A DNA stretch of 64,000 nt from Gemmatimonadota bacterium (GCA_039586795.1 JBDHJS010000001.1:48507-112506); one strand, 5' to 3'. Counted from the stretch's first letter, positions 444 through 18,592 are shown. A program made the numbers and translations. Notes: generated from the sequence alone by a model not told the origin.

Positions 444-1157
444 CTAGGGTTCAAACAGCGCCGTGAGCCGGCGCCTGAGCTCATCGCGCACTCCGCGGAA
501 CGAGTCGAGGATCTCCTCATCGCTCCCTTCTGCGGCGGCCGGATCGGAGAGCGGCCAGTGGACACGCTGCGCTTCGCCCAGCCACACCGGACAGACCTCC
601 TCAGCGCACAGCGTGATAACAGCGTCCACGTCGGGTCCCTCGAGCTGACGGATATCGTCGATCGCTTTGGAATGCTGGAACGCAGCATCTATACCCGTTT
701 CTTCCAGCGCACGAATGGCGAAAGGGTTGACCCGGGACGGTGCCGACCCGGCGGATGAGATGACGACGGTATCCGGCGCCAGGTTCCGGGCGATTCCTTC
801 CGCCATCTGACTGCGCGCCGAGTTTGCAACGCAGAGGAAGAGCAGATGTCGTGGTTGCAGTGCGCGAAGTATGCGAGCTTCGATCAACCACTGGGGAGGT
901 ACGCCATCCCCGTCATCGTAACGGCGGCAGGCGAAGGCCGGCGGACCGACGTCGGGCCCGGCCACATCTTCGCCGTTGACCCGCACCGTGGGAGATCCGG
1001 GAAAAGCGAGTTGCTCAGCTTCCGTGACGTCTCGGATTTCCTTGTGAATGACCTCGGCATCGGGCGTCAAGAGAGCCGTCGTCTCCTGCACGAGCCGCCG
1101 TGCCGGCTCGGCATTGGGACAGTCGGGTGTGGTGAGGACTTCCAGGCGCAGGGTCAT
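444..1157 (-). CDS. arsC: arsenate reductase, LMW-PTP/thioredoxin-coupled type, with N-terminal fused thioredoxin-like domain
   Basis: C-terminal half has CX5R P-loop (LCVANSARS), the second Cys pair (LCAEEVCP) and overall similarity to B. subtilis-type ArsC; N-terminal ~95 aa form a separate thioredoxin/glutaredoxin-like domain with a single Cys (TPDCPN). Confidence 0.75.
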   Translation of the reverse strand: MTLRLEVLTTPDCPNAEPARRLVQETTALLTPDAEVIHKEIRDVTEAEQLAFPGSPTVRVNGEDVAGPDVGPPAFACRRYDDGDGVPPQWLIEARILRALQPRHLLFLCVANSARSQMAEGIARNLAPDTVVISSAGSAPSRVNPFAIRALEETGIDAAFQHSKAIDDIRQLEGPDVDAVITLCAEEVCPVWLGEAQRVHWPLSDPAAAEGSDEEILDSFRGVRDELRRRLTALFEP

Positions 1158-1160
1158 TCT

Positions 1161-2252
1161 CTACTCATCTCCTCCAGCCATTGCCGCGGCCGGGGCCGCT
1201 TCGCCAAAGAAACGACGTTTCAACCACAGCGACACTTGCACGAGGCCGATCATCACCGGCACCTCGACTAGCGGGCCGATGACCGTCGCGAAGGCCGGCT
1301 GTGACGCGATCCCGAACACGGCGATCGCCACGGCGATGGCGAGCTCGAAATCGTTGCTGGCCGCTGTGAGCGCAACCGTCGTGGTCTCCGGATACTCACC
1401 CCGCAGGAAGCGCGCGGCGAAGAAGGTGATCACGAACATCGCCACGAAATAGATGGCCAATGGAATCGCGATCCGAACCACATCATACGGAAGCTGCACG
1501 ATCAGCTCGCCCTTTAGGGAGAACATCACGACAACGGTAAACAGCAAAGCCGCCAAAGTGATTGGGCTGATGCGCGGGATGAATACCCGCTCGTACCATT
1601 CCCTTCCTTTGAGCTTCAGCAGTGAAAACCGCGTGATGAGACCCGCTAAGAACGGGATGCCCAGGTAGATGAACACGGTACGGGCGATCTCTCCCACGCT
1701 CACATGCATCTCCGCACCCTGAAACCCGAAGAGCGGCGGCAGCAGCGTGATGAAGAACCAGGCGTAGAACCCGTAGAACAGCACCTGGAAAACGGCATTA
1801 GCCGCCACCAGACCTGCCGCCAAGTCGTGGTCACCCTCTGCCAAGTCGTTCCACACCAGCACCATGGCGATACACCGCGCGAGTCCCACCAAGATCAAGC
1901 CGACGGCATAGCCCGGCATGTCGCGCAGCAACAGGACGGCTAGGAAGAACATCACCAGCGGCCCGATGACCCAGTTCTGCAACAGCGACAGCGCCAGTAT
2001 CCGCTTGTGCCGCAGGACCACCCAGAATTTCTCGTAGCGAACTTTGGCGAGCGGCGGGTACATCATCAGGATGAGGCCGATCGCAATAGGAATGGAAGTC
2101 GTCCCGATCTGGGTCGCACGATTGAGCGCCTCGACCGGCTCGGGCCACAGATAGCCGATCGCGACTCCCAAGGCCATGGCGGCGAAAATCCAGACCGTCA
2201 GATAGCGGTCGAGAAACGAAAGTCGCCGCGCTACGGAACTGTCAGCAGCCAC
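1161..2252 (-). CDS. acr3: arsenite efflux transporter, ACR3 family
   Basis: 363-aa polytopic membrane protein with strong resemblance to Acr3/ArsB(ACR3) family; 4-nt gap to arsC and a shared base with the arsR stop. Confidence 0.85.
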
Positions 2253-2638
2253 TATGAACTCACTTTCGATCTAGAAGGCGCCACCTCCCGCGGGGCCGCG
2301 GCCGGATGACAGCGCTTGGCTCTCATCTCGTCCAGTTCACCCGCGACCTCCGGAACCGGGACATCAGCCAGCACCCGCCGGAGCATCTCGAGCAGGGTCC
2401 GCTGTTCTTCGCGCGTCGGCTCCGCGGGATGGTAGTAGACCCACAGACCATCCCGACGGTCCTGCAACAACCCGGCGTTGAGCAGGTAACGAAGGTGCCG
2501 GGACGCCTTGGACTGCGAAATCTCGAGAAACCGCTCAACCTCGCAGACGCAAAGTTCCCCGTGGCGGAAGATGAGAGCGAGGATCTGAAGGCGAACGTCT
2601 TCGGAGAGCGCCTTGAACTGCTGCGTCAGCTGGAGCAT
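2252..2638 (-). CDS. arsR: ArsR/SmtB family transcriptional repressor
   Basis: wHTH with metal-binding ELCVCE motif ([32 protein letters not shown]); the track ORF extends to 2752, but the likely start is the internal Met (MLQLTQQ) at 2638, verified as CAT at 2636-2638. Confidence 0.75.
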
Positions 2639-2640
2639 GA

Positions 2641-2666
2641 TTATACCCGTGTATGCGGTTATACAT
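2641..2666 (-). promoter_or_regulatory. candidate ArsR operator, imperfect inverted repeat TTATACCCG-N7-CGGTTATAC
   Basis: Imperfect dyad (7/9 matching positions) located 3-30 nt upstream of the arsR start codon, AT-richer than surroundings. Confidence 0.3.
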
Positions 2667-2748
2667 GACAAACATACCCCAGCCTGGCCCTCGCCACAAG
2701 AACGTGGGCCGCACGCGCGGGCAATTGCAGGCACGCGCGCTCCTGGCT

Positions 2749-4479
2749 TCATTGGCTGCCGAGGCGCACTTCCATTCGCGTCATGCCGCCCTTTTCAGAA
2801 CGCACCGTAATCGAGAGACGCGGGTCACTTCCCGCCGAGCGTACCACGTACTCGAAGGTCCGGCGCGCGGCGGCTGTCCCAGTCCGGCCCTGGGTGTCCC
2901 GCGTGCCGAGAAGGTGGCCGAGGTCGGCCCGCGCCTGACCTGAGACCAGCTCTGCATCGGATAGGTCTAGAGTCACGCGGACCGGCACCGCGACATTCGC
3001 GTCCAGCGCCCGCCGTGTGATGTTCGTCGGCAGATAGCCTTCGTTCTCGACGACGCCGGTGATCTTGAACAGGCCGGAGCCCAACGACTCGGTCTCCACG
3101 TCCTTGAGAACCACCCGAGGGCTGATCTCAGCCAGCCACAGCATCCACGGCACGTACAACTCGAGCTCGCCCTTCAAGAACTGCGACGGTGGGTTCTGGC
3201 GCGTGAACTTGCTGCGCCAGCCGCCGATCTCGACCCGGCCAAGCTGGGGATGGTCGTAGGCCGTCCAATCGGCGAAGCCTTCACCGTCCAGCTCTTCCTC
3301 GTTCCATCGGTGCCGCTCGGCTTCCGAGACGTTGCCGTCATCATCGTAGTCGCGACCGAAGCCGCCCCAGAACTCGGGGACGAAGGCGACAACACCGAAG
3401 TCCCAGTACGACCACGAAATCAAAGTGCCGTAACGGTGGATGCGCGGGTTGCTGTAGCTGGGAATTGCTCGTTGCCCGGTGGTCGATTCGTACTTACGCG
3501 ACATCTCCAAGATCAAGGACTGGTCAGACAGAACGTAGTCGTCCCACGATGTAGTGGACGGGAGTCGGAACAGGAAGCCACCGGACGTGTGCCCATGGAA
3601 CACTCCGGTGATGTTGCGGTGCGAATTGAGGAACTCGATCGTCGCCCGGGTCTCGGGCTCAGACAATGGATAGGGTCCTGCACCGGTCTGCTCGAACTCC
3701 ATCCCCCAGTTGCGCGGGAAGTTACGATTCATGTCGATGCCGCCTGGCCCATCTTCGTTGAACAGGCCGTCGTCATCGTCATCGATTCCCTCTGAGTAAA
3801 CCGCGAAGAACTCGCCCTCGAAGTCCTCATCGCCGCGGCGCTCCATGATGCGCGAGTCGGACCGGTTCACCTTCCAGCGACCGTTGGCATTGGGCACACG
3901 CATCTGCGTGATGGCGCCGTCGCCGTCCAGGTCGTTCCCCGGATCCTCATCCAGTAATCCATCGCCGTCCTGGTCGTACGGGCGTGGGGTGCTCCGCAGG
4001 TTCTGCTCAGTATTCAGCGCGATGTCCGCGCCATCCGGATTGAACTTCGGCCGGACGTACAGCGTCCTCGTATCGACGAGGCGAGTGACCCGGTCATCAC
4101 TGCCGTAGTTGGAGAGGAGATACCAGGCGAAGTGAAGCGCCACCTCGGCACCGGTCAGCTCGCCGGCGTGGATATTCCCATCGTAATAGTAGCCGGGTTT
4201 CTCGCCCGCTGCGCCCGTACCCTTGTTCGTGATCTCCAGGACGAGGAGCGGCGTACCCTCCAGCGTCTCACCGATGGAGTACAGCCGGGTTAGCTGCGGA
4301 TACGCTTGCGCCCAATCCTCGAGCAACGCGTATGCCCGCTCGGTGGAGTGGTAGGTGTTCCAGCTGGGATCGCGGGGGTTCTCATCCTGGGCGAACAGCG
4401 GTACCGCCGAAGAAGGAGCGAGCACCAGGCTCCAGCAGGCGAACACAATCAGATAACGCCTAATGGCATCAGCAGGCAT
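2749..4479 (-). CDS. secreted zinc carboxypeptidase, peptidase M14 family, with Asp-rich Ca-binding-like insertions
   Basis: Signal peptide; HxxE zinc motif region (NIHAGELTGAE) and M14-like fold signature; two DxDxDG-like acidic loops (DQDGDGLLDEDPGNDLDGDG and GIDDDDDGLFNEDG). Confidence 0.7.
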   Translation of the reverse strand: MPADAIRRYLIVFACWSLVLAPSSAVPLFAQDENPRDPSWNTYHSTERAYALLEDWAQAYPQLTRLYSIGETLEGTPLLVLEITNKGTGAAGEKPGYYYDGNIHAGELTGAEVALHFAWYLLSNYGSDDRVTRLVDTRTLYVRPKFNPDGADIALNTEQNLRSTPRPYDQDGDGLLDEDPGNDLDGDGAITQMRVPNANGRWKVNRSDSRIMERRGDEDFEGEFFAVYSEGIDDDDDGLFNEDGPGGIDMNRNFPRNWGMEFEQTGAGPYPLSEPETRATIEFLNSHRNITGVFHGHTSGGFLFRLPSTTSWDDYVLSDQSLILEMSRKYESTTGQRAIPSYSNPRIHRYGTLISWSYWDFGVVAFVPEFWGGFGRDYDDDGNVSEAERHRWNEEELDGEGFADWTAYDHPQLGRVEIGGWRSKFTRQNPPSQFLKGELELYVPWMLWLAEISPRVVLKDVETESLGSGLFKITGVVENEGYLPTNITRRALDANVAVPVRVTLDLSDAELVSGQARADLGHLLGTRDTQGRTGTAAARRTFEYVVRSAGSDPRLSITVRSEKGGMTRMEVRLGSQ

Positions 4480-4558
4480 ACGTGGGCTCCTGTGAGAAAT
4501 GGGGGCTAGTCTGGGATGGCTAAAGATGCAGGCTGACCGGCCGCGCCGCGAGTGCGCG

Positions 4559-7459
4559 CTAGCGATGCTCCCGGCTGGCGAGCAGCGTCAGGCGCTCCGC
4601 CGCGTAGTCGACCAGCGGGCGAAGTTCGGGGTCGCAGTCGCGCCACAGCGCGATGAAGGTTTCGTAGTGATGGGCAGCCAGGGCATCGTCGCCCAGGCGC
4701 TCGTAGATCTCGGCGCGCTTGAGATGGGAAGGGGCCAGGTAGATCAACTCGCGCGACGAGCTGGCGGTGAACGAACTATACCAGTTGAGAGCTTCCTCTT
4801 CGCGACCGGCGGCGGCGAGCAACTCGGCCCGGGTATAGCGCTCGAAGGCCTGCGCGTAGAAGAGTGAGGCGGCCATGTTCTGGTACCAGCTTTGTACCGT
4901 CGCCTGCTCCAACTCGTGGATGGCATCCTCAGGTTCTCCCTCGGCGATAGCGACCTGAGCGCGGATCGACTGGGCGAGGTCGCCCGCCAGCTCGGTCACC
5001 TCGTCGGGTCCGTCGAGCTGCCCCAACTCCTGTGCGTACTGCAGCGCCGCGCCGCCGTCATCGAGTCGCGCGCTCAGAAGTCCCAGCAGGTAGAGCCTCA
5101 GGTGCGCGTGCGCTTCATCGTGAACGCTGGACCACGTCATGCGCGCCGCGCTCTGGCGCCACTCGTCTGACGTCCAACCCCGAAGCTCGGATCGAATGGC
5201 TTCCAGCTCCGCGTCAGTTGTACCCAGAAACGGAGTGGCGGAAAGCAGCGCCCTGTACTCGAGCGCCGAAACGGCATCAAGGGAGGACGCGATATTCAAT
5301 TCTACCCTGGCGTCCCGCCATTTCCCCTGAGCCAGGAGCAGCGATGCGCGGATCGTGTGTCCCAGCGCGCGTACATCGGAGGGGTAGGCGGGGTCGGTGA
5401 GCATGCCGACGACTCCCACGGCGCCATCCAGGTTGAGCGTGAAGACCGGGACGCTCCAACTCATGACCATCAACTGGTCGAGCTCGGCGAATCGCATCTC
5501 GGACATGACTTGCTGCTGACCCTGCTCGTCACCGATCACGAACTCCCGCAGCGCGCGAACCTCGAGCGCCCTGTCGTCGTCGGGATGAAGCGCCAGGTAA
5601 CGTTCGACCAGCTCTACCAGCTCATCCGCATCCCCTTCCAGGGCGGAAATCCGGATCAAGTGCGTTAGGGCGTGGACTTCGTTGGGCTCGAAGAACAGGA
5701 CGCGCTCGAAGGGCGCTCGGGCCTCACCGATGGAGCGACCGTAGTACGGAGCGAAGTGGAAGAGAAGCTCACCCAGCTGGATCCACGCCTCAACGTCATC
5801 CGGGTGCGTGCTGAGGATCGCGCGGTAGAGACGCTCCGACTCCCTGGGATCGCCCAGCCGGTAGGCGTGAAACGCCTCGAACAGGTCACGGTCGTGATCG
5901 GAGAGCCGACTGCTCAGGCGGTAAGCCTGTTGGGCGCTGAGTTCGACGAGATCGGAGCGCACCATCCAGTCGGCGGCGACGCCGAGGCGATACCAGGCGA
6001 GGGCGAAGGTGGTGTCGAGCTCGGTAGCGAGCTGGAACGCTTCGGCCGCCGGCGCGAAGTACCCCGCGCGAAACGCCCGCTCCCCCTCCAGGTAAGCCTT
6101 GAGCGCCGGTAGCGAGCTGGTCGTCACTTCGGCGATGCGAGTCGCGCCGCTCCCAAGGCTTTGGCCGACGAGAAGCTGCGCGGCTACCTCGTCGACGAGA
6201 TCGAAGAGACTCTCAGCACCGCCCTCGGCAGATGCGTGGGCGACGGCGTCGAGCCCCGCATTCGGATCGAACAGCGACGCGTCGAGCTTCAAGTTTCCGC
6301 GCACCTCGACGATACTGCCGAGCACGTAGAGGCCAGCGCCCAGACCGCTTGCAATACCCTGCGCCTCCTCAGGATCCGGCACGCCCAGGCCTTCTTGCTC
6401 CACCAGGCTCAGCACGGCGCGCGGGTCGGCGCTGCGCAATTCTCCCGCGCCGTCCAGCGCGGTGCTCAGCAAGTCGACCATCCCCATGCTGAGATAATCG
6501 AAGCTGCTGCTGCCACCCACCGAGAACGGCAGCACGGCGATCCGCATCTGCGAGACCGGCGGCGATCGTGGCATCCACAGGTCACGCAACCCCCAGGCGC
6601 CGCCGACGACGATCACCAGCGCGAGCGTCGCGGCCAGCGCTTTCGACAGCAGCGTGGCATGGCGTGCGGCCGATCCTTCCTGCGCTCGGTTGAGCGCAGC
6701 GCGAAAGGCGCCCGCGTCGGCCCAGCGGTCGGCCGGCTTCATGGCGAGGGCGCGCTTAAGGACTCGAGCCAGATTCTGGGGTACGCCCGTCCAGTCCGCC
6801 TCCTTGACCGGCGTGAGCATCGACCAGCGGCGGCCGGTGAGGGAGTCGTAGAGTACCATTCCGACGGCATAGAGGTCGGTTTGCGTCGTGACTTCATCAC
6901 CCGTGACCTGCTCCGGCGCCATGTGGCCCGGCGTCCCCACCCGCTGGCCCGGCTCGGTGATGGTGGAATCTCTATCGTGGTGCTTGGCGATCCCGAAGTC
7001 GCCGAGCAACGCATGGTCGTCAACGAGGAAGATGTTGCTCGGCTTGATGTCGCGATGGACGATGCCGCTCCCGTGCACCGTTTCCAGCGCCGAGAGCATG
7101 TCGTTCCCCAACTTCACCGCCTCTTCACGGGGCAGCGGGCCGCGATCCAGCCGCTCCTTCAGCGTCTCCCCTTCCACATAGTCCATGATGTAGTAGAAGG
7201 ACTCGCCGATCTCGCCGGCGTGGTAGATGGAAACGACGTTGGGATGCCGGATGCGAGCCAGGATTCGGGCTTCTTCGAGGAGACGTTTCGATGCCCGGGG
7301 GTCATCGAGATCGTGACGGTGGACCTTCACGGCGACGGTCCGGTCCAGCACCGTGTCGTGGGCCAGGAAGACCGTCCCCATCCCACCGCTCGCCAGCTCC
7401 CGCTCCACCTCGTACTGAGGCGGAAGAGCTTCGCGCAGCCGCTCGAGCAGAGAGCTCAT
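4559..7459 (-). CDS. membrane Ser/Thr protein kinase with large C-terminal TPR-like extracytoplasmic domain
   Basis: N-terminal Hanks kinase domain (GxGGMGTV, VAVK, HRDIKPSNI, DFG, APE), one TM segment (LALVIVVGGAWGL), then ~650 aa helical repeat region. Confidence 0.85.
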   Translation of the reverse strand: MSSLLERLREALPPQYEVERELASGGMGTVFLAHDTVLDRTVAVKVHRHDLDDPRASKRLLEEARILARIRHPNVVSIYHAGEIGESFYYIMDYVEGETLKERLDRGPLPREEAVKLGNDMLSALETVHGSGIVHRDIKPSNIFLVDDHALLGDFGIAKHHDRDSTITEPGQRVGTPGHMAPEQVTGDEVTTQTDLYAVGMVLYDSLTGRRWSMLTPVKEADWTGVPQNLARVLKRALAMKPADRWADAGAFRAALNRAQEGSAARHATLLSKALAATLALVIVVGGAWGLRDLWMPRSPPVSQMRIAVLPFSVGGSSSFDYLSMGMVDLLSTALDGAGELRSADPRAVLSLVEQEGLGVPDPEEAQGIASGLGAGLYVLGSIVEVRGNLKLDASLFDPNAGLDAVAHASAEGGAESLFDLVDEVAAQLLVGQSLGSGATRIAEVTTSSLPALKAYLEGERAFRAGYFAPAAEAFQLATELDTTFALAWYRLGVAADWMVRSDLVELSAQQAYRLSSRLSDHDRDLFEAFHAYRLGDPRESERLYRAILSTHPDDVEAWIQLGELLFHFAPYYGRSIGEARAPFERVLFFEPNEVHALTHLIRISALEGDADELVELVERYLALHPDDDRALEVRALREFVIGDEQGQQQVMSEMRFAELDQLMVMSWSVPVFTLNLDGAVGVVGMLTDPAYPSDVRALGHTIRASLLLAQGKWRDARVELNIASSLDAVSALEYRALLSATPFLGTTDAELEAIRSELRGWTSDEWRQSAARMTWSSVHDEAHAHLRLYLLGLLSARLDDGGAALQYAQELGQLDGPDEVTELAGDLAQSIRAQVAIAEGEPEDAIHELEQATVQSWYQNMAASLFYAQAFERYTRAELLAAAGREEEALNWYSSFTASSSRELIYLAPSHLKRAEIYERLGDDALAAHHYETFIALWRDCDPELRPLVDYAAERLTLLASREHR

Positions 7460-7615
7460 GCGCGCTCTAACCTATGGAATGGGAGAGCACGAACCCAGGT
7501 ATGGGGCCCAGGAAGGCGCAAAAGGACCGATCGCAGCGAGGACCTCCGGTGTCGGGGCGTCGTTCGGGAACTGCTGGCCGCCAAGAAGATGGGGCTTTGG
7601 GGGATTTAAGGCCAG

Positions 7616-8539
7616 TTATCCCGCACAATTCCGCCAGGCGATGCCCAGCGCGACGATCACAAGGGCGGCGACTGCTGGAAGAACCCAGGCGGGCATTCTC
7701 GAGCGCGAGCCTTCCCCTGAATTCCGGATCGACGCGGCGAACTCGCCAACGCTACCCTGCCGTTCCGCCGGGCGTTTGCTCAGCGCTTTCATCAGCGCCC
7801 CCCGCATGCCCCCGGGAACGGAGCCGGGAAGCGGCTCGGGCCTCTCGTAGATGTGCTGTTTCAGAATGTCCGAGATGTTCGCTCCCACGAACGGTGGTTG
7901 CCCGGTCAGCAACTCGTAGACCACGCAGGCCAGGCTGTAGAGATCGGTTCGCGCGTCAATCGTCTCCAACCCCGCCAACTGCTCAGGGCTGACGTAGAGC
8001 GGCGTCCCGACGATGGAGCCGGTGGCGGTAAGCGTGGCCTGATCGGCACCGCACATCGCGCGCGCCAATCCGAAGTCGGCGACGATCGCTTCGCCGTTGG
8101 AGACGAGAATGTTCTCCGGCTTTATGTCCCGATGCACGATACCCTGTTGGTGCGCGTGCTCGAGTGCCTCGGCCACATCAATAGTGAGCTTGATCGCCTC
8201 CTCCACCGGCAGCTTCCCGCGGCGTCGAATCAGGTCACGCAGCGATTCACCATCGACGAACGGCGTAACGTAGTAGGCCAAATCCCCCGCCGTCCCCGAG
8301 TCGAGGAGCGGGAGGATGTGGGGGTGCTGCAGCTTCGCGGTCACTCGAATCTCACGCTCGAATCGAGTCAGCTCGGCGCCCGAGGCAAGCTCCGGGTGGA
8401 TCACCTTGATCGCGACGGAACGTTCGTGCTTGCGATCGCGAGCGCGGAAGACCGTCCCCATGCCGCCGGCGCCGATCTCGTCCTCCAGCTCGTAGGTATC
8501 GGACAGCGCTTCGTGGATTATCTCGTGGGGATCGCCCAT
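7616..8539 (-). CDS. membrane-anchored Ser/Thr protein kinase
   Basis: Hanks kinase motifs (GAGGMGTV, AIKV, HRDIKPENI, DFG, SPE) plus a C-terminal TM anchor (VLPAVAALVIVALGIAW). Confidence 0.85.
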   Translation of the reverse strand: MGDPHEIIHEALSDTYELEDEIGAGGMGTVFRARDRKHERSVAIKVIHPELASGAELTRFEREIRVTAKLQHPHILPLLDSGTAGDLAYYVTPFVDGESLRDLIRRRGKLPVEEAIKLTIDVAEALEHAHQQGIVHRDIKPENILVSNGEAIVADFGLARAMCGADQATLTATGSIVGTPLYVSPEQLAGLETIDARTDLYSLACVVYELLTGQPPFVGANISDILKQHIYERPEPLPGSVPGGMRGALMKALSKRPAERQGSVGEFAASIRNSGEGSRSRMPAWVLPAVAALVIVALGIAWRNCAG

Positions 8540-8640
8540 GCTAGCCCGGGAGCGTGTAGTCTTTGAGGTTCAGCCGTCGCGATTGAACACCGAATGATGA
8601 CTGCAGATATCGACTCGACGCAACCGGTGCCGCTGACGCC

Positions 8641-9909
8641 TCAGGCCGCGTCGGTGCCTTCGTGATCGATGGAAGGTGGCTTGCCGTACTCCCTACTTCG
8701 TAGCGTGAGAACCGTGACCTCGGGAGGCGTGCCGATGCGAAACGGGATTCCCCAGTAGTTGGTGCCCGGGTTGATGTAGAGCAGCGATTCCCCCTGACGA
8801 TGGACTCCCATCGACAAAGCCAGGAATGGTGAGGCGGCGTTCCAGTTGCGGCTGGGAATTGCCAGCTGGCCGTAGTGGGTGTGACCGCTGAGCGTCAGGT
8901 CGACTCCGCGAGCGGCGAGTTCCGGCCACAAGGCGGGGTTGTGCGCCAGGGCGAGAACCGGCTCGCCCTTCGGAATACGAGCGAGCGTGCGATCGATATC
9001 GGGCGCCGCATTCCGACCTTCGTGATTCCACGCTCGTCCGGCGGGGTCGCCGGCACCGGCGACCCAGAGCCGGTCGCCGCCGCGCTCAACCGCAACGGCC
9101 TCGTTCACCAGCACGGTGAAGCCGCCATCCAACAGCCCCTGCCGCACCGGACCCCAACCCGCGTAAACATCGTGGTTGCCCGCGATGGCGAAAACGCCGA
9201 GCGGAGCATCCAGGTCGCTGAAGGCTTCGTTGAAGTACTCGACATCGCGTGGGAAATCGTCGACCTGGTCGCCGGTGAAGACGATGATGTCGGGATGCGC
9301 GTTCCGCGCCGCATCCGCGACACGCGTCAGGTAGCGCCGCGACGTGTGCGGACCGACATGTAGGTCGGAAATCTGGACGATACGCAGCCCATCGAAGTCG
9401 TCGGGCAAGTTTGGCAACAAAACATCGAGGTGCCGCACGACCAGTCGTCGTGATCCTAGATAACCGGCCAGCGAAACGATACCCAGCAACGCACCGACCG
9501 TCGCCAAACCCCAGCGGCCCGCCACGCCTCCTGCTCCGAACCACACACCCACGGCGGCCACCGTCACACCCGCCACGGCAAGCAGCGGCATGACCAGCAT
9601 GGCGTACCAAAACGGCCGGAGCACGAACAATCGAGTGAGCGCGGAGGGATAGGTGGCGCCGCCCAGGCCACGCACCAAGACGAACACCGGTAGGCCGCCC
9701 AGCATTGCTACGCCGGCGACCGTCACCCACCCGCCGGGCAGGACGGGTTGGAGCAACGAACCCACCACCAGCCAGGACCCGCCGAGCCATACCGCGATGA
9801 ACGTGAGCACCCGGCGAAGTGGAAACGTCCGCCTTCGCTTCACTTCAGCGCTCTGAGCGCGCTCCGATTCCGGCCGCTGGATCGTGTCCAGCGCTCTGTC
9901 TCCCGTCAC
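8641..9909 (-). CDS. membrane-bound metallophosphoesterase (calcineurin-like phosphoesterase) with N-terminal multi-TM domain
   Basis: N-terminal 4-5 hydrophobic helices, then MPE motifs: DLH, GDQVDD, GNHD, GHTH; start overlaps the copA stop by 4 nt (9906-9909). Confidence 0.75.
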
Positions 9910-12440
9910 CGGGTCGCCCCGCTGATATCGACCTTTCTGAGGCGCGCGCTGTTGCTGACGACGTTGATGGAGCTGAAAGCCATGGCGGCTTCGGCGATGG
10001 CCGGGTGGAGGAAGCCCAGAATCGCGACGGGTATCGCGATCACGTTGTAGAAGTAAGCCCAGAACAGGTTCTGTCGGATCTTGCGGAACGTGGCCCGAGA
10101 TAGACGGATCGCTTTCACAACCGCCGACAGATTGCCCTGCACGAGGGTCACGTCTGCGGCCTCGATGGCGATATCGGTGCCGGTGCCGATGGCGATACCC
10201 ACGTTCGCTTGCTTGAGCGCCGGCGCGTCGTTGATGCCATCGCCGACCATAGCGACGTCGCGGCCTTCGCTCTGCAACCGACGCACCTCGTCCACCTTCT
10301 GATCGGGCAGTACCTCGGCGATCACACGATCGATGCCGACTTCTCGGGCAATGGCGTTCGCGGTGCGTTGATTGTCGCCGGTAAGCATGACGGTCTCGAG
10401 GCCGAAGCGCTTGAGCTCCGCGATGGCTTCCTTCGAGTCGTCTTTCAGCGTATCGGCCACGGCGATCACCCCCGCAAGTCGATCGCCGACCCCAACAAAC
10501 ATTGCGGTCTTGGCCTCATCCTCCAGGCGATCCAGTTCCGTGGCCAGCTGATCGAGCGTGATATCGTGTTCCTCCATCAACCGGGCGTTCCCGACGACCA
10601 CGAGCTGCCCCTCGATCGTCGCGACGACGCCGCGACCGACGGCCGCTTCGAACCGTGATGCGCTACTGGCAGTCACACCGCGCTTCAGCGCTTCAGCCAC
10701 GATGGCGCTACCCAAAGGATGTTCGGATCCCAGCTCGGCGCCGGCAGCGTACCTGAGCACTTCGTTCGCATCTCGGCCCGCCGCCGGCACGATATCGGTC
10801 ACACCCGGTTCGCCCCTGGTGATAGTGCCTGTCTTGTCGAGGACGATCGTGTCGACCTCTTTGAGAGTTTGGATCGCCGCTCCGCTCCGGAACAACACAC
10901 CGTTCTCGGCGCCCATGCCGGTACCGACCATCAGCGCCGTAGGCGTGGCGAGGCCGAGGGCGCACGGACAGGCGATGACCAACACGGCCACTGCGGCGAA
11001 TATCGCCAGCGAAACGCGACTCAAGCTCGGGTCGACCCACGGCAGAAAGCCCGAAGCCCATTCGGCGATCGAAGCGAAGGCGCCGGGGAAGATGAGCCAG
11101 GCGAGGAACGTGGCGGTGGCAACCGCCAGAACCGTCGGAACGAAGACGGCGGTCACACGATCGGCGAACTGCTGTATCGGGACCTTCGTGCCCTGGGCCT
11201 CTTCCACCATGCGGATGACGTTGGCCAGGAAAGTGTCCTCGCCGACGCCGGTGGCCCGGACCCGAAGCAGTCCTTCTTTGTTGATCGTGGCACCGATGAC
11301 CCGGTCGCCCTCAGCCTTCTCCACCGGCATCGATTCGCCCGTAGCCAGTGACTCATCGACTGAAGAGTGGCCGCCAATCACTTCGCCGTCGGTGGGAATC
11401 TTCTCGCCGGGCCGCACGATCATCACGTCGCCGACTTCAACCTCTTCGATGGGCACCTCGACCTCGGCACCGTCCCGCTCGACGCGAGCGGTCTTCGCCT
11501 CCAACGACAGCAGCTTCTGAATCGCGGCGGACGTACGACCGCGGGCCCTGGTCTCCACGTAACGGCCGGTGAGGTGGATGGCCATGATCATTCCACCGAC
11601 GCCCGCATAGTTGAGCAGCTTGGGCGCAAAGCCCAGATCGTAAGCGACGGTGACGAAACCAGTGGCGAAGGCGACGGTGGAGCCGATGGCGATGAGGGTG
11701 TCCATCGTCGGCGTGCCGTTCACCAGACTCCGGAAGCCAGCGCGAACTGTGTCCCAGCCCCAAACGAACAGGACCGGTGCGGCGAGGACGATCATCCCGA
11801 TGTCATAGGCGAGCGCGGAGGGCCACATGACACCGAAGAACATGTGGGGGATCATCCAGGCGATGATCGGCGCGGTCAGCACCCAGGCGAAGACCATCCG
11901 GCGTTGCGCATCATCGACCTTACGCTGGTCTTCCTCGAGACGCTCCCGCTCCCGTGCCAGACGGCGCTCGGCGCCCGCGCGCTCAACAGAAGCCACGCCG
12001 TAGCCCGCGGCCTCCACCGCGGCACGCATGTCATCGACGCGAACCTGACCGGGGATGTGCGACACGGTCGCCTTGTGAGTCGCGATGTTCACAGCCGCCG
12101 AGTCCACGCCATCCAGTTCGGCCAGAGCCTTCTCTACCGCTGCCGAGCACGAGGCACAGTGCATCCCCTCAACATCGAGAACGACCGTCTGCGGCTTCGC
12201 CTTGACCTCAAAGCCCGCCTTCTCCACGGCACGGCGAAAGTCATCGAGCCCGACCTGGCCGCCGTAGTATTCAACCGTCGCCTTTTCGGTTGCCAGGTTC
12301 ACACTCGCCTGCTCCACACCGTCCAGTCCGGCCAGCGCTTTCTCCACCGCCGCGGAACACGACGCGCAGTGCATGCCGCCGATCTCGAGCGTCTCTTTCT
12401 TCAATGTTCGTTGAGCCATCATCAGATTCCGCCAAAACAA
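9906..12440 (-). CDS. copA: copper-translocating P1B-type ATPase with two N-terminal HMA domains
   Basis: Two [18 protein letters not shown] domains, [10 protein letters not shown] transmembrane metal site, DKTGTIT phosphorylation motif, [10 protein letters not shown] hinge. Confidence 0.9.
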
Positions 12441-12505
12441 CGGGCGCCGGCCCCGGAATGTTCTCCGGAGCCCACGCCCGAGTCTATTCAGTTCAGACCG
12501 CTTAC

Positions 12506-12552
12506 TGCTTAGCGCTTACCACCCACTACCTACCACCTACCACTCACCACCT
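12506..12552 (-). repeat. G-rich GGTAGG-repeat element in RNA sense immediately 3' of stop codon (CTACC repeats on plus strand)
   Basis: ccacccactacctaccacctaccactcaccacctaccg directly abuts the stop codon of the upstream minus-strand gene; related copies at 13770-13812, 21737-21776 and 21846-21881. Confidence 0.5.
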
Positions 12553-13216
12553 ACCGACCGCCACCGCCCTCTTCGTGGTGCACCCGATGCCGCATCCGCA
12601 TACCCTGCCCATCGCCCTCACCTTCCATATGCATACGCATCTGCCGCATACCCTGACGGCGAAATACCTCGGCGCCTTCCTTCCAAGTCTCGAACTTCTG
12701 GCGCTGCGCATCGTTCAGCACGCCCAACGTCTGGCGCTCCACGTCGATGAAGCTCTTGGCCTGGGCGGTGCGGAGTCGAGCCAGCTCGTCGATGGCGCTC
12801 TCCATCGCGTCGTAGTCGTCGGCTCTGCGGGCTTCGGCGAGCGCTTCGGCCTGCTTCTGCATCTGCTCGCGCATGCCGGTCATCAGCGCCTGGTGGCTGG
12901 TGTGTACGCCCTCGAGCTGAGTGACCTGCTCCTCGGAGAGCTCGAGATCGTCCTTGAGGCCGATCAGGAAATGCGGGCCGAGGTGCGCCGCTCCCATGCG
13001 GGCGCTGGTCCTCATGTGCCGCATGCCCTGCCGCATACCCCGCATGCTCATCCGGCCCTGTCGGCCCATCTGGCGCATCATGCCGCGGTGAGCGCGCCGC
13101 ATCTGCGCCGTGGTATCCTGCTCTGCTTCTTGAGCAGCGCCAACCGCAGGTAGCGCCAGGAGCGCCGCCAACGCGAGTGCTGCTGCTGCTGGGAATCGCA
13201 TATTCATCTTGCCCAA
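12551..13216 (-). CDS. periplasmic Spy/CpxP/ZraP-family protein (LTXXQ motifs) with Met- and His-rich metal-binding-like termini
   Basis: Signal peptide; LSEEQVTQL and LNDAQRQKF LTXXQ-type motifs; Met-rich N-region (MRQMGRQGRMSMRGMRQGMRHM) and MRMHMEGEG...HRVHHEE C-tail; lies between csoR and copA. Confidence 0.55.
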   Translation of the reverse strand: MGKMNMRFPAAAALALAALLALPAVGAAQEAEQDTTAQMRRAHRGMMRQMGRQGRMSMRGMRQGMRHMRTSARMGAAHLGPHFLIGLKDDLELSEEQVTQLEGVHTSHQALMTGMREQMQKQAEALAEARRADDYDAMESAIDELARLRTAQAKSFIDVERQTLGVLNDAQRQKFETWKEGAEVFRRQGMRQMRMHMEGEGDGQGMRMRHRVHHEEGGGGR

Positions 13217-13298
13217 ACCTCCATCAAAGCTGTCGGTGCCGCGTCTACAATACTGACAGCTAACGATCCGAAAACGCTAGCTGACGGTCGGCGCCCGA

Positions 13299-13601
13299 TC
13301 AGCGAACGTAGCGGCCCAACAGGTCGACGATCTCCTGCCTCACCTGCTCCGCCGCCGGACCGCCCTCCATGATGGCGTGGGCGGCGCAGCGATCCAGGTG
13401 GTTCCCCAGCAGTTCGCGCTCCACGGCCCGGAGCGCCGAATGGACGGCGGTGCACTGCTGGAGGATGTCGGGGCAGTATCGCTCTTCGTCCACCATGCGC
13501 TGAATTCCTTCCACCTGCCCGCGGACTCGGGCAAGACGCTTGAGCAGGTCGCGCTTGGTGTTGTCGGCGATACCCATTGCATGTGAGGGATTCTCTGTCA
13601 T
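13299..13601 (-). CDS. csoR: copper-sensing transcriptional repressor, CsoR/RcnR family
   Basis: DUF156-type four-helix bundle with the conserved Cys (YCPDILQQ), His (HSAL) and C-terminal Cys (DRCAAHA) ligands; start taken at internal Met (MTENPSH), verified as CAT at 13599-13601. Confidence 0.8.
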   Translation of the reverse strand: MTENPSHAMGIADNTKRDLLKRLARVRGQVEGIQRMVDEERYCPDILQQCTAVHSALRAVERELLGNHLDRCAAHAIMEGGPAAEQVRQEIVDLLGRYVR

Positions 13602-13628
13602 CCGGCAGGGCCTCCTCTGTAGAGAGTA

Positions 13629-13652
13629 TATGCTATACTGGGGTATAGTATA
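13629..13652 (-). promoter_or_regulatory. candidate CsoR operator: inverted repeat TATGCTATAC-TGGG-GTATAGTATA
   Basis: Near-perfect 10-bp arms around a G-tract, 28-50 nt upstream of the csoR start; resembles the GC-tract-centred palindromes bound by CsoR proteins. Confidence 0.45.
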
Positions 13653-13769
13653 AGAAACCCGTCCCGTCTGCAACCCCCTCCCTCCTGCTAGTGCTCACGC
13701 TCGTGACCCTGTTCAACTCTATCACGAGCAGGAGATGAAAAGAGATACGGCCGGCCCCGTGACACGAAG

Positions 13770-13812
13770 CCGACCGTCTACTGTCTACCCTCTACTGTCT
13801 ACCGTCTACCGC
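13770..13812 (-). repeat. GTAGAC/GGTAGA-repeat element (RNA sense) immediately 3' of the diheme cytochrome c gene
   Basis: gaccgtctactgtctaccctctactgtctaccgtctaccg overlaps the stop codon at 13806; same family as 12506-12552 and the 21.7-kb inverted repeats. Confidence 0.5.
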
Positions 13813-14552
13813 GCCGATCGCTCCCGTAGGTAGTTCGCGATGGCATCCGCCTCACGGTCTGTGAGCGGCGCGATATCCATGGCGTTCATCAAGCCACGCA
13901 TCCGGGCAACGATGGCGTCCCACCCGGCGGCGGTGTGTGCGCGCGGCGACGGCGGCGCGTGACAGATGGCGCACCTCTGCATGAAGAGGTCGAGGCCGGG
14001 TCCGTCCGTCAGTTCGCCGGGTTCGGCTTCCGGCAACGCGTTCCTCTGCAGGTAAGAGAGGATCGAGTCGGTCTGCTCCGGCGTCGGGTACTCGGCCGTC
14101 TCGAGTCCAGCCATCACCACGTCGCCGATCAGGCCGGTTGTGAGCGGGCCGCCTAGTCGGTACTCCAGGGTCTGAGCCCGGTAAAGCATGTTGCGCAGCA
14201 AATACGGCCATTCGGTCGCAGTATGCATCTTGGGTGACGGCAGCCAGTGGCACTGGATGCAGTAAACTTGGAGAAGGCCGGCGCCGCGCGAGCCGGGTTC
14301 GGGCAGCTGCTCCGGTGTGTAGTTGATGGGCGGCAGACCGGAACCGACGGACGCGATCAAGCGCCAGCGCGTACCGCGTTCCATGGCGGCGGTGGCGGTT
14401 CCACCGAGCTCGGCGAGCACGCTGTCGACGACGGCGATGTCGACCTCCTGGTTCGCCTGCTCCTGGACGCAGCCGGCCGCCACTACCGTGAAAGCAAGCG
14501 CGGCGAGGACACCACCCAGTCGCGACCACTTCTCCCGGCTCTGTCTGTGCAT
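13806..14552 (-). CDS. diheme c-type cytochrome lipoprotein
   Basis: Lipoprotein signal (VVAAGC); two CxxCH motifs (CIQCH, CAICH), each followed by similar ATEWP/AAGWD segments, suggesting an internal duplication. Confidence 0.7.
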   Translation of the reverse strand: MHRQSREKWSRLGGVLAALAFTVVAAGCVQEQANQEVDIAVVDSVLAELGGTATAAMERGTRWRLIASVGSGLPPINYTPEQLPEPGSRGAGLLQVYCIQCHWLPSPKMHTATEWPYLLRNMLYRAQTLEYRLGGPLTTGLIGDVVMAGLETAEYPTPEQTDSILSYLQRNALPEAEPGELTDGPGLDLFMQRCAICHAPPSPRAHTAAGWDAIVARMRGLMNAMDIAPLTDREADAIANYLRERSAR

Positions 14553-18545: not shown

Positions 18546-18592
18546 AATCCCCGAACCTCGTAATCCCCGAACCCCCGAATCCCATCACCTCC
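18546..18592. repeat. copy of dispersed CGAATCCCC/AATCCCCGAAC repeat element
   Basis: AATCCCCGAACCTCGTAATCCCCGAACCCCCGAATCCC; 24/27 identity to 46360-46402; located between convergent genes mlaD and 18585..18971. Confidence 0.5.

Follow-up and report, generated by a model that had tools for sequence, protein, structure and literature searches.

A copper-efflux cassette, a membrane metallophosphoesterase and a pair of Hanks-type kinases juxtaposed in a Gemmatimonadota bacterium

The window analysed here, a 64,000-nucleotide stretch of DNA from a Gemmatimonadota bacterium, contains a copper-efflux cassette ending in copA, followed by genes for a membrane metallophosphoesterase (MPE) and two Ser/Thr protein kinases (STPK1 and STPK2), all on the minus strand. 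Gene calls and profile matches agree with the positions and common orientation given for copA, MPE and both kinases in an earlier note made from the sequence alone. Further downstream of STPK2 (444..4479, minus strand) are genes for an M14 carboxypeptidase (2749-4479), ArsR (2252-2752), ACR3 (1161-2252) and an ArsC-like LMWP (444-1157). The gene order of the locus is present on three independently assembled contigs, which excludes an assembly chimera.

The copper cassette and the element preceding copA

The cassette consists of csoR, an LTXXQ gene and copA. The csoR gene (13299..13601, minus strand), two genes upstream of copA and annotated in the source MAG with a length of 100 aa, encodes a Cu(I)-type metal-sensing repressor (PF02583, 92 bits), with a C...H-x3-C ligand pattern provided by the Cys in RYCPD and the H-x3-C in NHLDRC. 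Upstream of csoR (13630..13673, minus strand), TTGCAG and TACTAT separated by 17 nt form a putative promoter, assigned by consensus match, and overlap the CsoR operator ATACTATACCCCAGTATAGCAT (13651-13630), which carries the inverted repeat CTATAC/GTATAG. In six related lineages the operator block does not vary, while its flanks diverge. The LTXXQ (CpxP/Spy-like) gene (12551..13207, minus strand; PF07813, 24.8 bits), found between csoR and copA in all seven lineages that have the cassette, encodes a secreted, Met/His-rich protein with a signal-like hydrophobic segment at residues 10-28, probably a periplasmic copper-binding partner. The copA gene (9906..12422, minus strand) encodes a P1B-type ATPase that exports Cu(I) and carries two HMA domains at its N-terminus (TIGR01525, 652 bits; TIGR01511, 562 bits), and orthologues with 77-91% identity were found in Gemmatimonadota. 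With a CsoR-family repressor bearing Cu(I) ligands, an adjoining Cu-ATPase and a conserved operator, the locus has the make-up of a csoR-regulated copper-efflux operon, as had been proposed, in which copper would release CsoR from the invariant operator.

The arrangement resembles the CsoR-regulated copZA/ctpV-type operons of Bacillus subtilis and Mycobacterium tuberculosis, in which a CsoR-family repressor with C-H-C ligands is likewise encoded upstream of a P1B-type Cu(I) ATPase, a pseudo-palindromic operator overlaps the promoter and the repressor gene is autoregulated. Those operons have the cytoplasmic CopZ, whereas the cassette described here instead has the secreted LTXXQ protein. It also differs in that an element resembling a terminator or attenuator immediately precedes copA (12433..12555, minus strand). 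In it, a heptamer array (12517-12555; period 7, 5.6 copies by TRF) that puts stop codons in every reading frame precedes a GC-rich hairpin (12480-12441) and a TTGTTTTG tract. The hairpin folds with an energy of -51 kcal/mol (z = -3.5 relative to shuffled sequences). Seven lineages have it, with the stem in one or the other of two versions, and a T-rich tract comes next in every case. Because this conserved structure lies between the LTXXQ gene and copA, the CsoR promoter would reach copA and the genes downstream only by read-through, and the hairpin would probably set the ratio of the upstream transcript to the copA transcript.

The metallophosphoesterase and its junction with copA

The MPE gene (8641..9909, minus strand) encodes a 422-aa protein with four TM helices predicted by hydropathy (34-52, 61-79, 100-124 and 134-152), in agreement with the AF2 model, thus settling the four to five suggested earlier at four. 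These are followed by a C-terminal YaeI/LpxG-like domain (PF00149, residues 175-346, 60.7 bits against a cut-off of 21.5) that is predicted to lie on the cytoplasmic side. The metal-binding motifs D182-x-H184, G213-D214, G244-N245-H246-D247, H323 and G342-H343-x-H345 do not vary among 29 homologues, and the AF2 model (pLDDT 87.7) shows the MPE sandwich fold. The best curated models are LpxG (105.7 bits, in two aligned stretches, best over residues 141-248) and YaeI (89.1 bits, residues 166-403 against profile positions 41-270, nearly the whole catalytic domain), both scores falling far under the NCBIfam equivalog cut-offs of 350 and 188 bits.

YaeI is a phosphodiesterase of E. coli. In the literature searched, no paper combined ‘YaeI’ and ‘metallophosphoesterase’. 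LpxG is the UDP-2,3-diacylglucosamine pyrophosphatase of Chlamydia (PMC4807358). Both have in common with MPE the calcineurin-like core with its motifs DxH, GDxxD, GNHD and hydrophobic-GHxH, and in all of them membrane association is provided by N-terminal helices. MPE differs in having four conserved TM helices, compared to the single helix of LpxG, and in having Asp in place of the Arg in the GDxxDR motif. No close solved homologue was found by sequence, the best E-value being 0.02 (to Mre11), and the Foldseek neighbours are phosphodiesterases and nucleotidases (MPPED2, 5'-nucleotidase, Mre11, SoxB and Rv0805). From sequence and modelled fold, MPE appears to be a YaeI/LpxG-type enzyme, a stand-alone, housekeeping-type membrane phosphodiesterase or pyrophosphatase, and the four conserved TM helices together with the active site on the cytoplasmic face point to a substrate (lipid or nucleotide) associated with the membrane. 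The family is a well-defined and widely distributed group of uncharacterised 4-TM metallophosphoesterases, the delineation of which may be of modest use.

The earlier note had pointed to PrpE-type protein phosphatases, an assignment that the data do not support. With PrpE and the PPP-family Ser/Thr phosphatases, MPE has in common only the general metallophosphoesterase superfamily fold. Its motifs DLHVG, GDQVDD and GNHD (AGNHD) depart from the PPP signature GDxHG, GDxVDRG and GNHE, with Asp at both the Arg position of motif II and the Glu position of motif III, the PPP, PrpE and ApaH NCBIfam families give no match even at E<=10, and no PPP structure occurs among the 50 best Foldseek PDB matches or among the PDB sequence matches.

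The start codon of MPE (GTG, 9909-9907) overlaps the stop codon of copA (TGA, 9908-9906). The reported overlap is thus real and 4 nt long, with the sequence GTGA rather than ATGA, and the GTG start is backed by N-terminal homology to the MPE homologue P0002, MTGDGALEPIQRPE. The sequence is homologous to copA of the relative L102 as far as GATATCAGCGGG, and to the MPE gene of L083 from about the start codon onwards, so that no 5' region of its own is left to MPE. A rearrangement in this lineage alone would have fused MPE, stripped of its 5' region, to the end of the copA coding sequence. Because of this loss and the 4-nt overlap, MPE is likely to be co-transcribed with copA in this lineage, judging from sequence features, and may also be translationally coupled to it. 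The junction, too, may be of modest use, as a clear case of capture into an operon through loss of the gene's own 5' region. Neither a consensus scan nor folding detected a terminator directly after copA in the window, and in GC, GC3 and codon usage MPE and the kinases resemble the neighbouring genes, giving no indication of a recent foreign origin.

The kinase pair

STPK1 (7616..8539, minus strand) is a tail-anchored kinase of 307 aa without a sensor domain, consisting of a Pkinase domain (PF00069, 178.6 bits) and a single TM helix at 284-302, as expected of the C-terminally anchored kinase described earlier. Its motifs VAIK, HRDIKPEN, DFG and SPE are those of Hanks-type kinases, as are VAVK, HRDIKPSN, DFG and APE in STPK2 (4559..7459, minus strand). 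The latter is a 966-aa protein with a Pkinase domain (PF00069, 148.9 bits), a TM helix at 270-288 and an extracytoplasmic sensor module of about 680 aa with TPR matches, in good accord with the TPR ectodomain of ~650 aa that had been claimed. STPK2 resembles the Hanks-type membrane kinases with TPR sensors that are expanded in Gemmatimonadota, Acidobacteriota and Myxococcota, which also have a cytoplasmic N-terminal kinase, a single TM helix and a large extracytoplasmic repeat sensor, the sensor module being common to adenylate cyclases and other outputs; that of STPK2 recurs in other proteins, where its output partners are adenylate cyclase, CHAT and BTAD domains. Unlike other such kinases, STPK2 is immediately preceded by the gene for a tail-anchored kinase that lacks a sensor, and at least three genomes keep the two together.

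The kinase genes follow MPE on the same strand, as noted earlier, but the gaps then described as short measure 101 nt (MPE-STPK1) and 156 nt (STPK1-STPK2), leaving room for promoters. The STPK1-STPK2 gap (7460..7615, minus strand) contains conserved blocks (TAACTGGC, CCCCATCTT and GCCCCnACAnCGGAGnnCCTCGyTGCG) that are kept in the window, L088, L100 and L095 whatever gene lies upstream, and among 109 loci the motif is confined to these four. The region is probably a promoter or operator belonging to STPK2, an assignment made for a phylum in which the promoter consensus is not established. An RNA element was considered and rejected (RNAalifold -6.7 kcal/mol, with almost no covariation), the blocks being treated as DNA-level signals, and Rfam gave no match over 4000-14500 at E<=1. 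A small ORF or N-terminal extension was likewise rejected, as an in-frame TAG lies five codons ahead of the ATG and the substitutions are not 3-periodic. When a conserved promoter was sought upstream of STPK1, only a short CGGTGTTC block proved common to the window and L088, and it is absent from L100.

Folding of the MPE-STPK1, STPK1-STPK2 and STPK2-M14 gaps gave no terminator better than shuffled sequences (z = -0.13, +1.49 and +2.09, respectively), a consensus scan of the same gaps found no minus-strand terminator, and in L100 and L095 the DNA following copA likewise showed no terminator-like structure. Since no such structure was found between them, there is scope for read-through from copA into the kinases.

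Neighbourhoods in relatives and the relationship between the units

The comparison covers a small sample of seven cop lineages with an orthologous cassette (copA 79-91% identical) and four orthologous kinase loci, mostly from one set of metagenomes. The genes after copA are MPE, STPK1 and STPK2 in the window, STPK1 and STPK2 in L100, STPK2 only in L095, a convergent SBF transporter in L102, LMWPc, ArsR and more genes with M14 last in L103/104, and a DUF6364-PIN pair (PIN toxin–antitoxin) in L105 and in L106-109. Kinases thus follow three of the seven cassettes, all in one clade and in three different arrangements, and MPE follows only that of the window. In the copA tree, L102 is the nearest relative (91% copA identity) and has no kinases, whereas they are present in L100, which is more distant, and in L095, which is basal. 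In L088 and L100, an STPK1 orthologue (69-70% identity) immediately precedes that of STPK2. The L088 pair (70% and 73% identity) is preceded by genes for MacB, a beta-lactamase and a hypothetical protein, with neither copA nor MPE at the locus, and no copA accompanies the STPK2 homologues of 49-61% identity (L089, L090 and L101). In most relatives, the cop cassette has ars genes no more than about 10 kb away.

The neighbourhood of MPE was surveyed in 80 other species, drawn from several phyla, at loci whose MPE orthologues have 50-68% identity to it; 71 of these loci form the informative set with at least 500 nt upstream of MPE. Neither copA, csoR nor the LTXXQ gene occurs near MPE (up to 10 kb a side) at any of the 80, no neighbour family is common to more than 11 of them, and P0002 and P0003, which are the nearest homologues, each stand alone in other surroundings. 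No kinase adjoins MPE at any of these loci; any kinase at all is found within up to 10 kb a side in seven, the nearest at 1.7-2.3 kb. In L085, MPE is divergent from an Nramp metal importer. The description of these genes as hard-wired to copA therefore applies to the physical joining of MPE in this genome and does not extend to a conserved design, as copA adjoins MPE at 0/71 informative loci and in one of seven cop lineages, and the copA-MPE-STPK1-STPK2 cluster does not recur across independent lineages.

The region is best explained, with good though not full confidence, as three evolutionarily independent units placed side by side, the stretch after the conserved copper cassette being a variable zone. 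STPK1 and STPK2 would form a conserved tandem pair of a sensor-less tail-anchored kinase and a TPR-sensor kinase, whose position after copA would be an ancestral synteny of a narrow Gemmatimonadota clade, repeatedly lost or replaced, and we infer that the pair is expressed independently of copA. Same-strand adjacency after copA is in this clade no evidence of function, since the junction is variable and also accommodates ars genes and toxin–antitoxin modules. On the comparative data, a conserved copper-signalling system at the locus is unlikely; the earlier proposal, if true, would link eukaryote-like kinase signalling with metal efflux in a phylum that has been little studied.

A more specific version, in which the kinase pair is tied to metal stress through a retained ancestral copA-STPK1-STPK2 order, copper-induced read-through raising the kinases and envelope or metal-homeostasis targets being phosphorylated, could draw on the window, L100 and L095, which span the clade on the copA tree and in which STPK genes come directly after copA and between cop and ars genes, and on the lack of a detected terminator after copA or MPE. 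We regard it as improbable, because four of the seven cop lineages, including the closest relative, have no kinases, L088 has the pair without copA, the more distant STPK2 homologues never adjoin copA, STPK2 retains a conserved upstream region of its own, and no paper in the literature searched links Hanks kinases to CsoR/CopA. Were that order between copper and arsenic genes functional, it would be the first link of a CsoR/CopA operon with Hanks-type signalling; the fuller scenario, in which MPE has here also been recruited to copper-inducible expression, is quite unlikely. Decidedly unlikely, too, is an adaptive capture of MPE by the cop operon, whereby copper would affect its dinuclear metal centre or membrane substrate and co-expression would compensate mis-metallation or remodel the envelope under copper stress: the precise removal of the MPE 5' region, the stability of the arrangement across three assemblies and the Nramp-linked orthologue are compatible with it, but it concerns a single lineage, MPE has no recurrent association with any metal gene at the 80 loci, and neutral rearrangement fits the data equally well.

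Some MPE-superfamily enzymes are protein phosphatases, and the adjacent same-strand genes, together with the predicted placement of the MPE catalytic domain and both kinase domains on the cytoplasmic side (by inferred topology), could suggest that MPE is the cognate phosphatase of STPK1 and STPK2, making up the kinase/kinase/phosphatase set proposed earlier. This is very improbable and already largely refuted by the comparative data: L088 and L100 have the kinase pair without MPE, orthologues of MPE in 80 species have no adjoining kinase, and MPE lacks the PPP motifs, matches no PPP, PrpE or ApaH model and has no PPP structure among its 50 best fold matches. The cognate phosphatases of bacterial Hanks kinases are, moreover, normally of the PP2C type. 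Juxtaposition of independent units remains the preferred reading. The occurrence of kinases after copA in three lineages spanning the base of the clade, between cop and ars resistance genes, represents more persistence than would be expected of a purely random neighbour.

Gene order from csoR to the ars genes

Every gene between 444 and 16294 of the window lies on the minus strand. Pfam and NCBIfam assignments give, in transcription order, csoR (13601-13299), a gene for a secreted, Met/His-rich LTXXQ protein (13207-12551), the Cu(I)-exporting ATPase gene copA (12422-9906), a membrane metallophosphoesterase (MPE, 9909-8641), the Ser/Thr kinases STPK1 (307 aa, 8539-7616) and STPK2 (966 aa, 7459-4559), and an M14 carboxypeptidase (4479-2749), followed by ArsR, the arsenite carrier ACR3 (1161-2252) and an ArsC-like protein. 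Gaps of 101 nt and 156 nt separate MPE from STPK1 and STPK1 from STPK2. The identical arrangement occurs on three separately assembled Gemmatimonadota MAG contigs, and is therefore not a chimera. The genes of the copA-MPE-kinase-kinase stretch are real, as judged by the Pfam and NCBIfam matches, with small corrections to an earlier note: the copA/MPE overlap, given there as ATGA, reads GTGA, in which the start of MPE overlaps the stop of copA. This GTG start is credible because MPE residues 1-33 are homologous to the N-terminus of one of its two closest homologues (P0002), which has ATG at the same place.

Family and neighbourhoods of the metallophosphoesterase

Hydropathy and an AlphaFold2 model (pLDDT 87.7) both give MPE four TM helices. 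A basic N-terminal tail leads into the TM region and further basic residues come after it; because of these flanking charges the catalytic domain is predicted to face the cytoplasm. The suggestion that MPE might be a PrpE-type protein phosphatase does not hold: in an NCBIfam profile search, the PrpE, ApaH and PPP models gave no match even at E<=10, and the MPE motifs (DLHVG, GDQVDD, GNHD and SGHTH) differ from the PPP signature. The top curated models were LpxG, at 105.7 bits against a cut-off of 350, and YaeI, at 89.1 bits against one of 188. LpxG is an Mn-dependent, membrane-anchored pyrophosphatase of the lipid-A pathway, and shares its motif pattern with MPE (PMC4807358). A PDB sequence search found no solved structure close to MPE in sequence; the Foldseek neighbours of the model (MPPED2, 5'-nucleotidase, Mre11, SoxB, TT1561 and Rv0805) are phosphodiesterases or nucleotidases, with no protein phosphatase among them. 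Across Gemmatimonadota, Acidobacteriota, Verrucomicrobiota, Rhodothermales and Chloroflexota the family retains 50-70% identity, TM helices included, and is apparently either mobile or strongly constrained. Based on the profile scores, motifs, Foldseek neighbours, likeness to LpxG and family conservation, MPE is read as a putative membrane-directed phosphodiesterase or pyrophosphatase, rather than a protein phosphatase. The family, represented by the window gene (8641-9909) and loci L003-L082 from other species, has invariant residues within its TM helices: W41, GGW 59-61, YP 87-88 and RPFWY 98-102.

The surroundings of MPE were surveyed in 80 orthologue loci of other species, taking in as much as 10 kb per side (1.18 Mb in total). 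Neither copA, csoR nor the LTXXQ gene was present in any of the 80, 71 of which include at least 500 nt upstream of MPE. A Ser/Thr kinase occurs anywhere in the flanking DNA of only seven loci, the nearest lying 1.7-2.3 kb away, and none of the 80 has a kinase directly adjoining MPE. Clustering of all flanking ORFs revealed no conserved neighbour, with no family present in more than 11 of the 80 loci. Both of the closest homologues stand alone, one beside sugar-metabolism genes and the other divergent from an Nramp gene. In the sequences compared, MPE adjoins copA in the window's lineage only, and it does not partner the kinases. In one close relative (L085, 6610-9365) the MPE orthologue diverges from a neighbouring gene for an Nramp metal importer, a single case with no such pattern among the 80 loci.

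The kinase pair and the zone downstream of copA

STPK1 carries a single TM helix near its C-terminus (residues 284-302 of 307), and STPK2 a TM helix at 270-288 followed by about 680 residues with TPR hits; the catalytic motifs are intact in both. Three other genomes carry an STPK2 orthologue (68-73% identity), and all of them lack MPE at the locus. In L088, the pair follows MacB, beta-lactamase and hypothetical genes, without copA; in L100, the order is csoR, LTXXQ gene, copA, a 227-nt gap, STPK1, STPK2 and ACR3; and in L095, it is cytc, csoR, LTXXQ gene, copA, a 124-nt gap and STPK2, without STPK1. No copA was found near STPK2 homologues of 49-61% identity. Conserved non-coding blocks accompany STPK2 on its 5' side irrespective of the upstream neighbour (window 7460-7615; L088 7846-8000; L100 4472-4626; L095 7877-8000), and include a GCCCCA element repeated about 36 nt apart. 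The blocks occur nowhere else in the 109 loci, and neither RNA structure support nor an Rfam match was found for them; most simply, they would represent a putative promoter or operator of STPK2 itself. The two kinase genes form a unit of their own, and its place after copA is a clade-restricted synteny that has been repeatedly broken. Together with the type of MPE and its place beside copA here only, this gives no support to the proposal of a kinase/kinase/phosphatase set hard-wired to copA.

A search from the copA side found four further lineages with an orthologous cop cassette and no kinase downstream. Downstream of their copA lies a convergent SBF transporter (L102, 91% copA identity), a series of LMWPc, ArsR, AHSA1, further genes and lastly M14 (L103/104, 82%), or a DUF6364-PIN toxin–antitoxin pair (L105, 82%; L106-109, 81%). 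Since the lineages differ in the genes after copA, this zone is variable, against a stable upstream synteny from M50 through cytc, csoR, the LTXXQ gene and copA. In the copA tree, the window's sister is L102, which lacks the kinases; they are present in L100 and in L095, the basal lineage. The simplest history would start from an ancestral order copA-STPK1-STPK2, with the kinases lost or replaced in at least two branches, STPK1 deleted in L095, and MPE inserted in the window's lineage. The deletion is suggested by two features: in all four genomes the conserved sequence 5' of STPK2 begins exactly at the stop codon TAACTGGC, and the C-terminal tail of the copA in L095 (…AELGRASSGAGGDKTSG; 7800-7876) is aberrant, unlike that of the other lineages, and ends in TAACTGGC as STPK1 does elsewhere. 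This tail looks like the scar of a deletion that removed STPK1. A functional meaning of the ancestral cop-kinase-ars order is improbable. The ACR3 carriers of the window (1161-2252) and L105 (15549-16337) share 97% protein identity, and copA of the same two genomes is only 80% identical, which suggests recent exchange of the ars genes between these lineages.

Transcription signals and short repeats

Six lineages share an unchanged CsoR operator, ATACTATACCCCAGTATAGCAT, which overlaps a promoter-like site, TTGCAG-17-TACTAT. The interval from the LTXXQ stop to the copA start contains a heptamer array, which carries stops in all frames, and a strong hairpin with TTGTTTTG after it. The hairpin (12433-12484; stem about 16 bp, z = -3.5) is terminator-like, and all seven lineages keep it, with one or the other of two stem versions. 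It lies about 20 nt from the copA ATG, and copA must therefore depend on read-through for its expression. The element probably acts as an attenuator or 3'-end stabiliser, implying attenuation or read-through control within the cop operon. Homology limits indicate that MPE lacks its own 5' region in the window, homology to L102 copA stopping at GATATCAGCGGG and homology to L083 MPE starting at about the start codon, and co-transcription with copA is therefore most likely. A fold test and consensus scan detected no terminator-like folds in the gaps before STPK1 and STPK2, and none was found after copA in L100 or L095; transcriptional read-through into the kinases may occur.

The tandem heptamer arrays (13773-13811, GGTAGAC; 12517-12555, GGTGGTA; about 5.6 copies each) immediately follow the stop codons of the genes for cytochrome c and the LTXXQ protein, put TAG/TAA into all three frames, and each precede a GC-rich hairpin and its T tract. 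At a TRF score of 45 or above, the 64 kb contain no other period-7 array; L100 has GTAGACR repeats (~940-980) in the corresponding position. Short repeats of the CCCCGAA(T/C)CCCCG type, present at 18546-18583 and upstream of csoR in L103, L105 and L106, recur in intergenic regions of the relatives and of the window.
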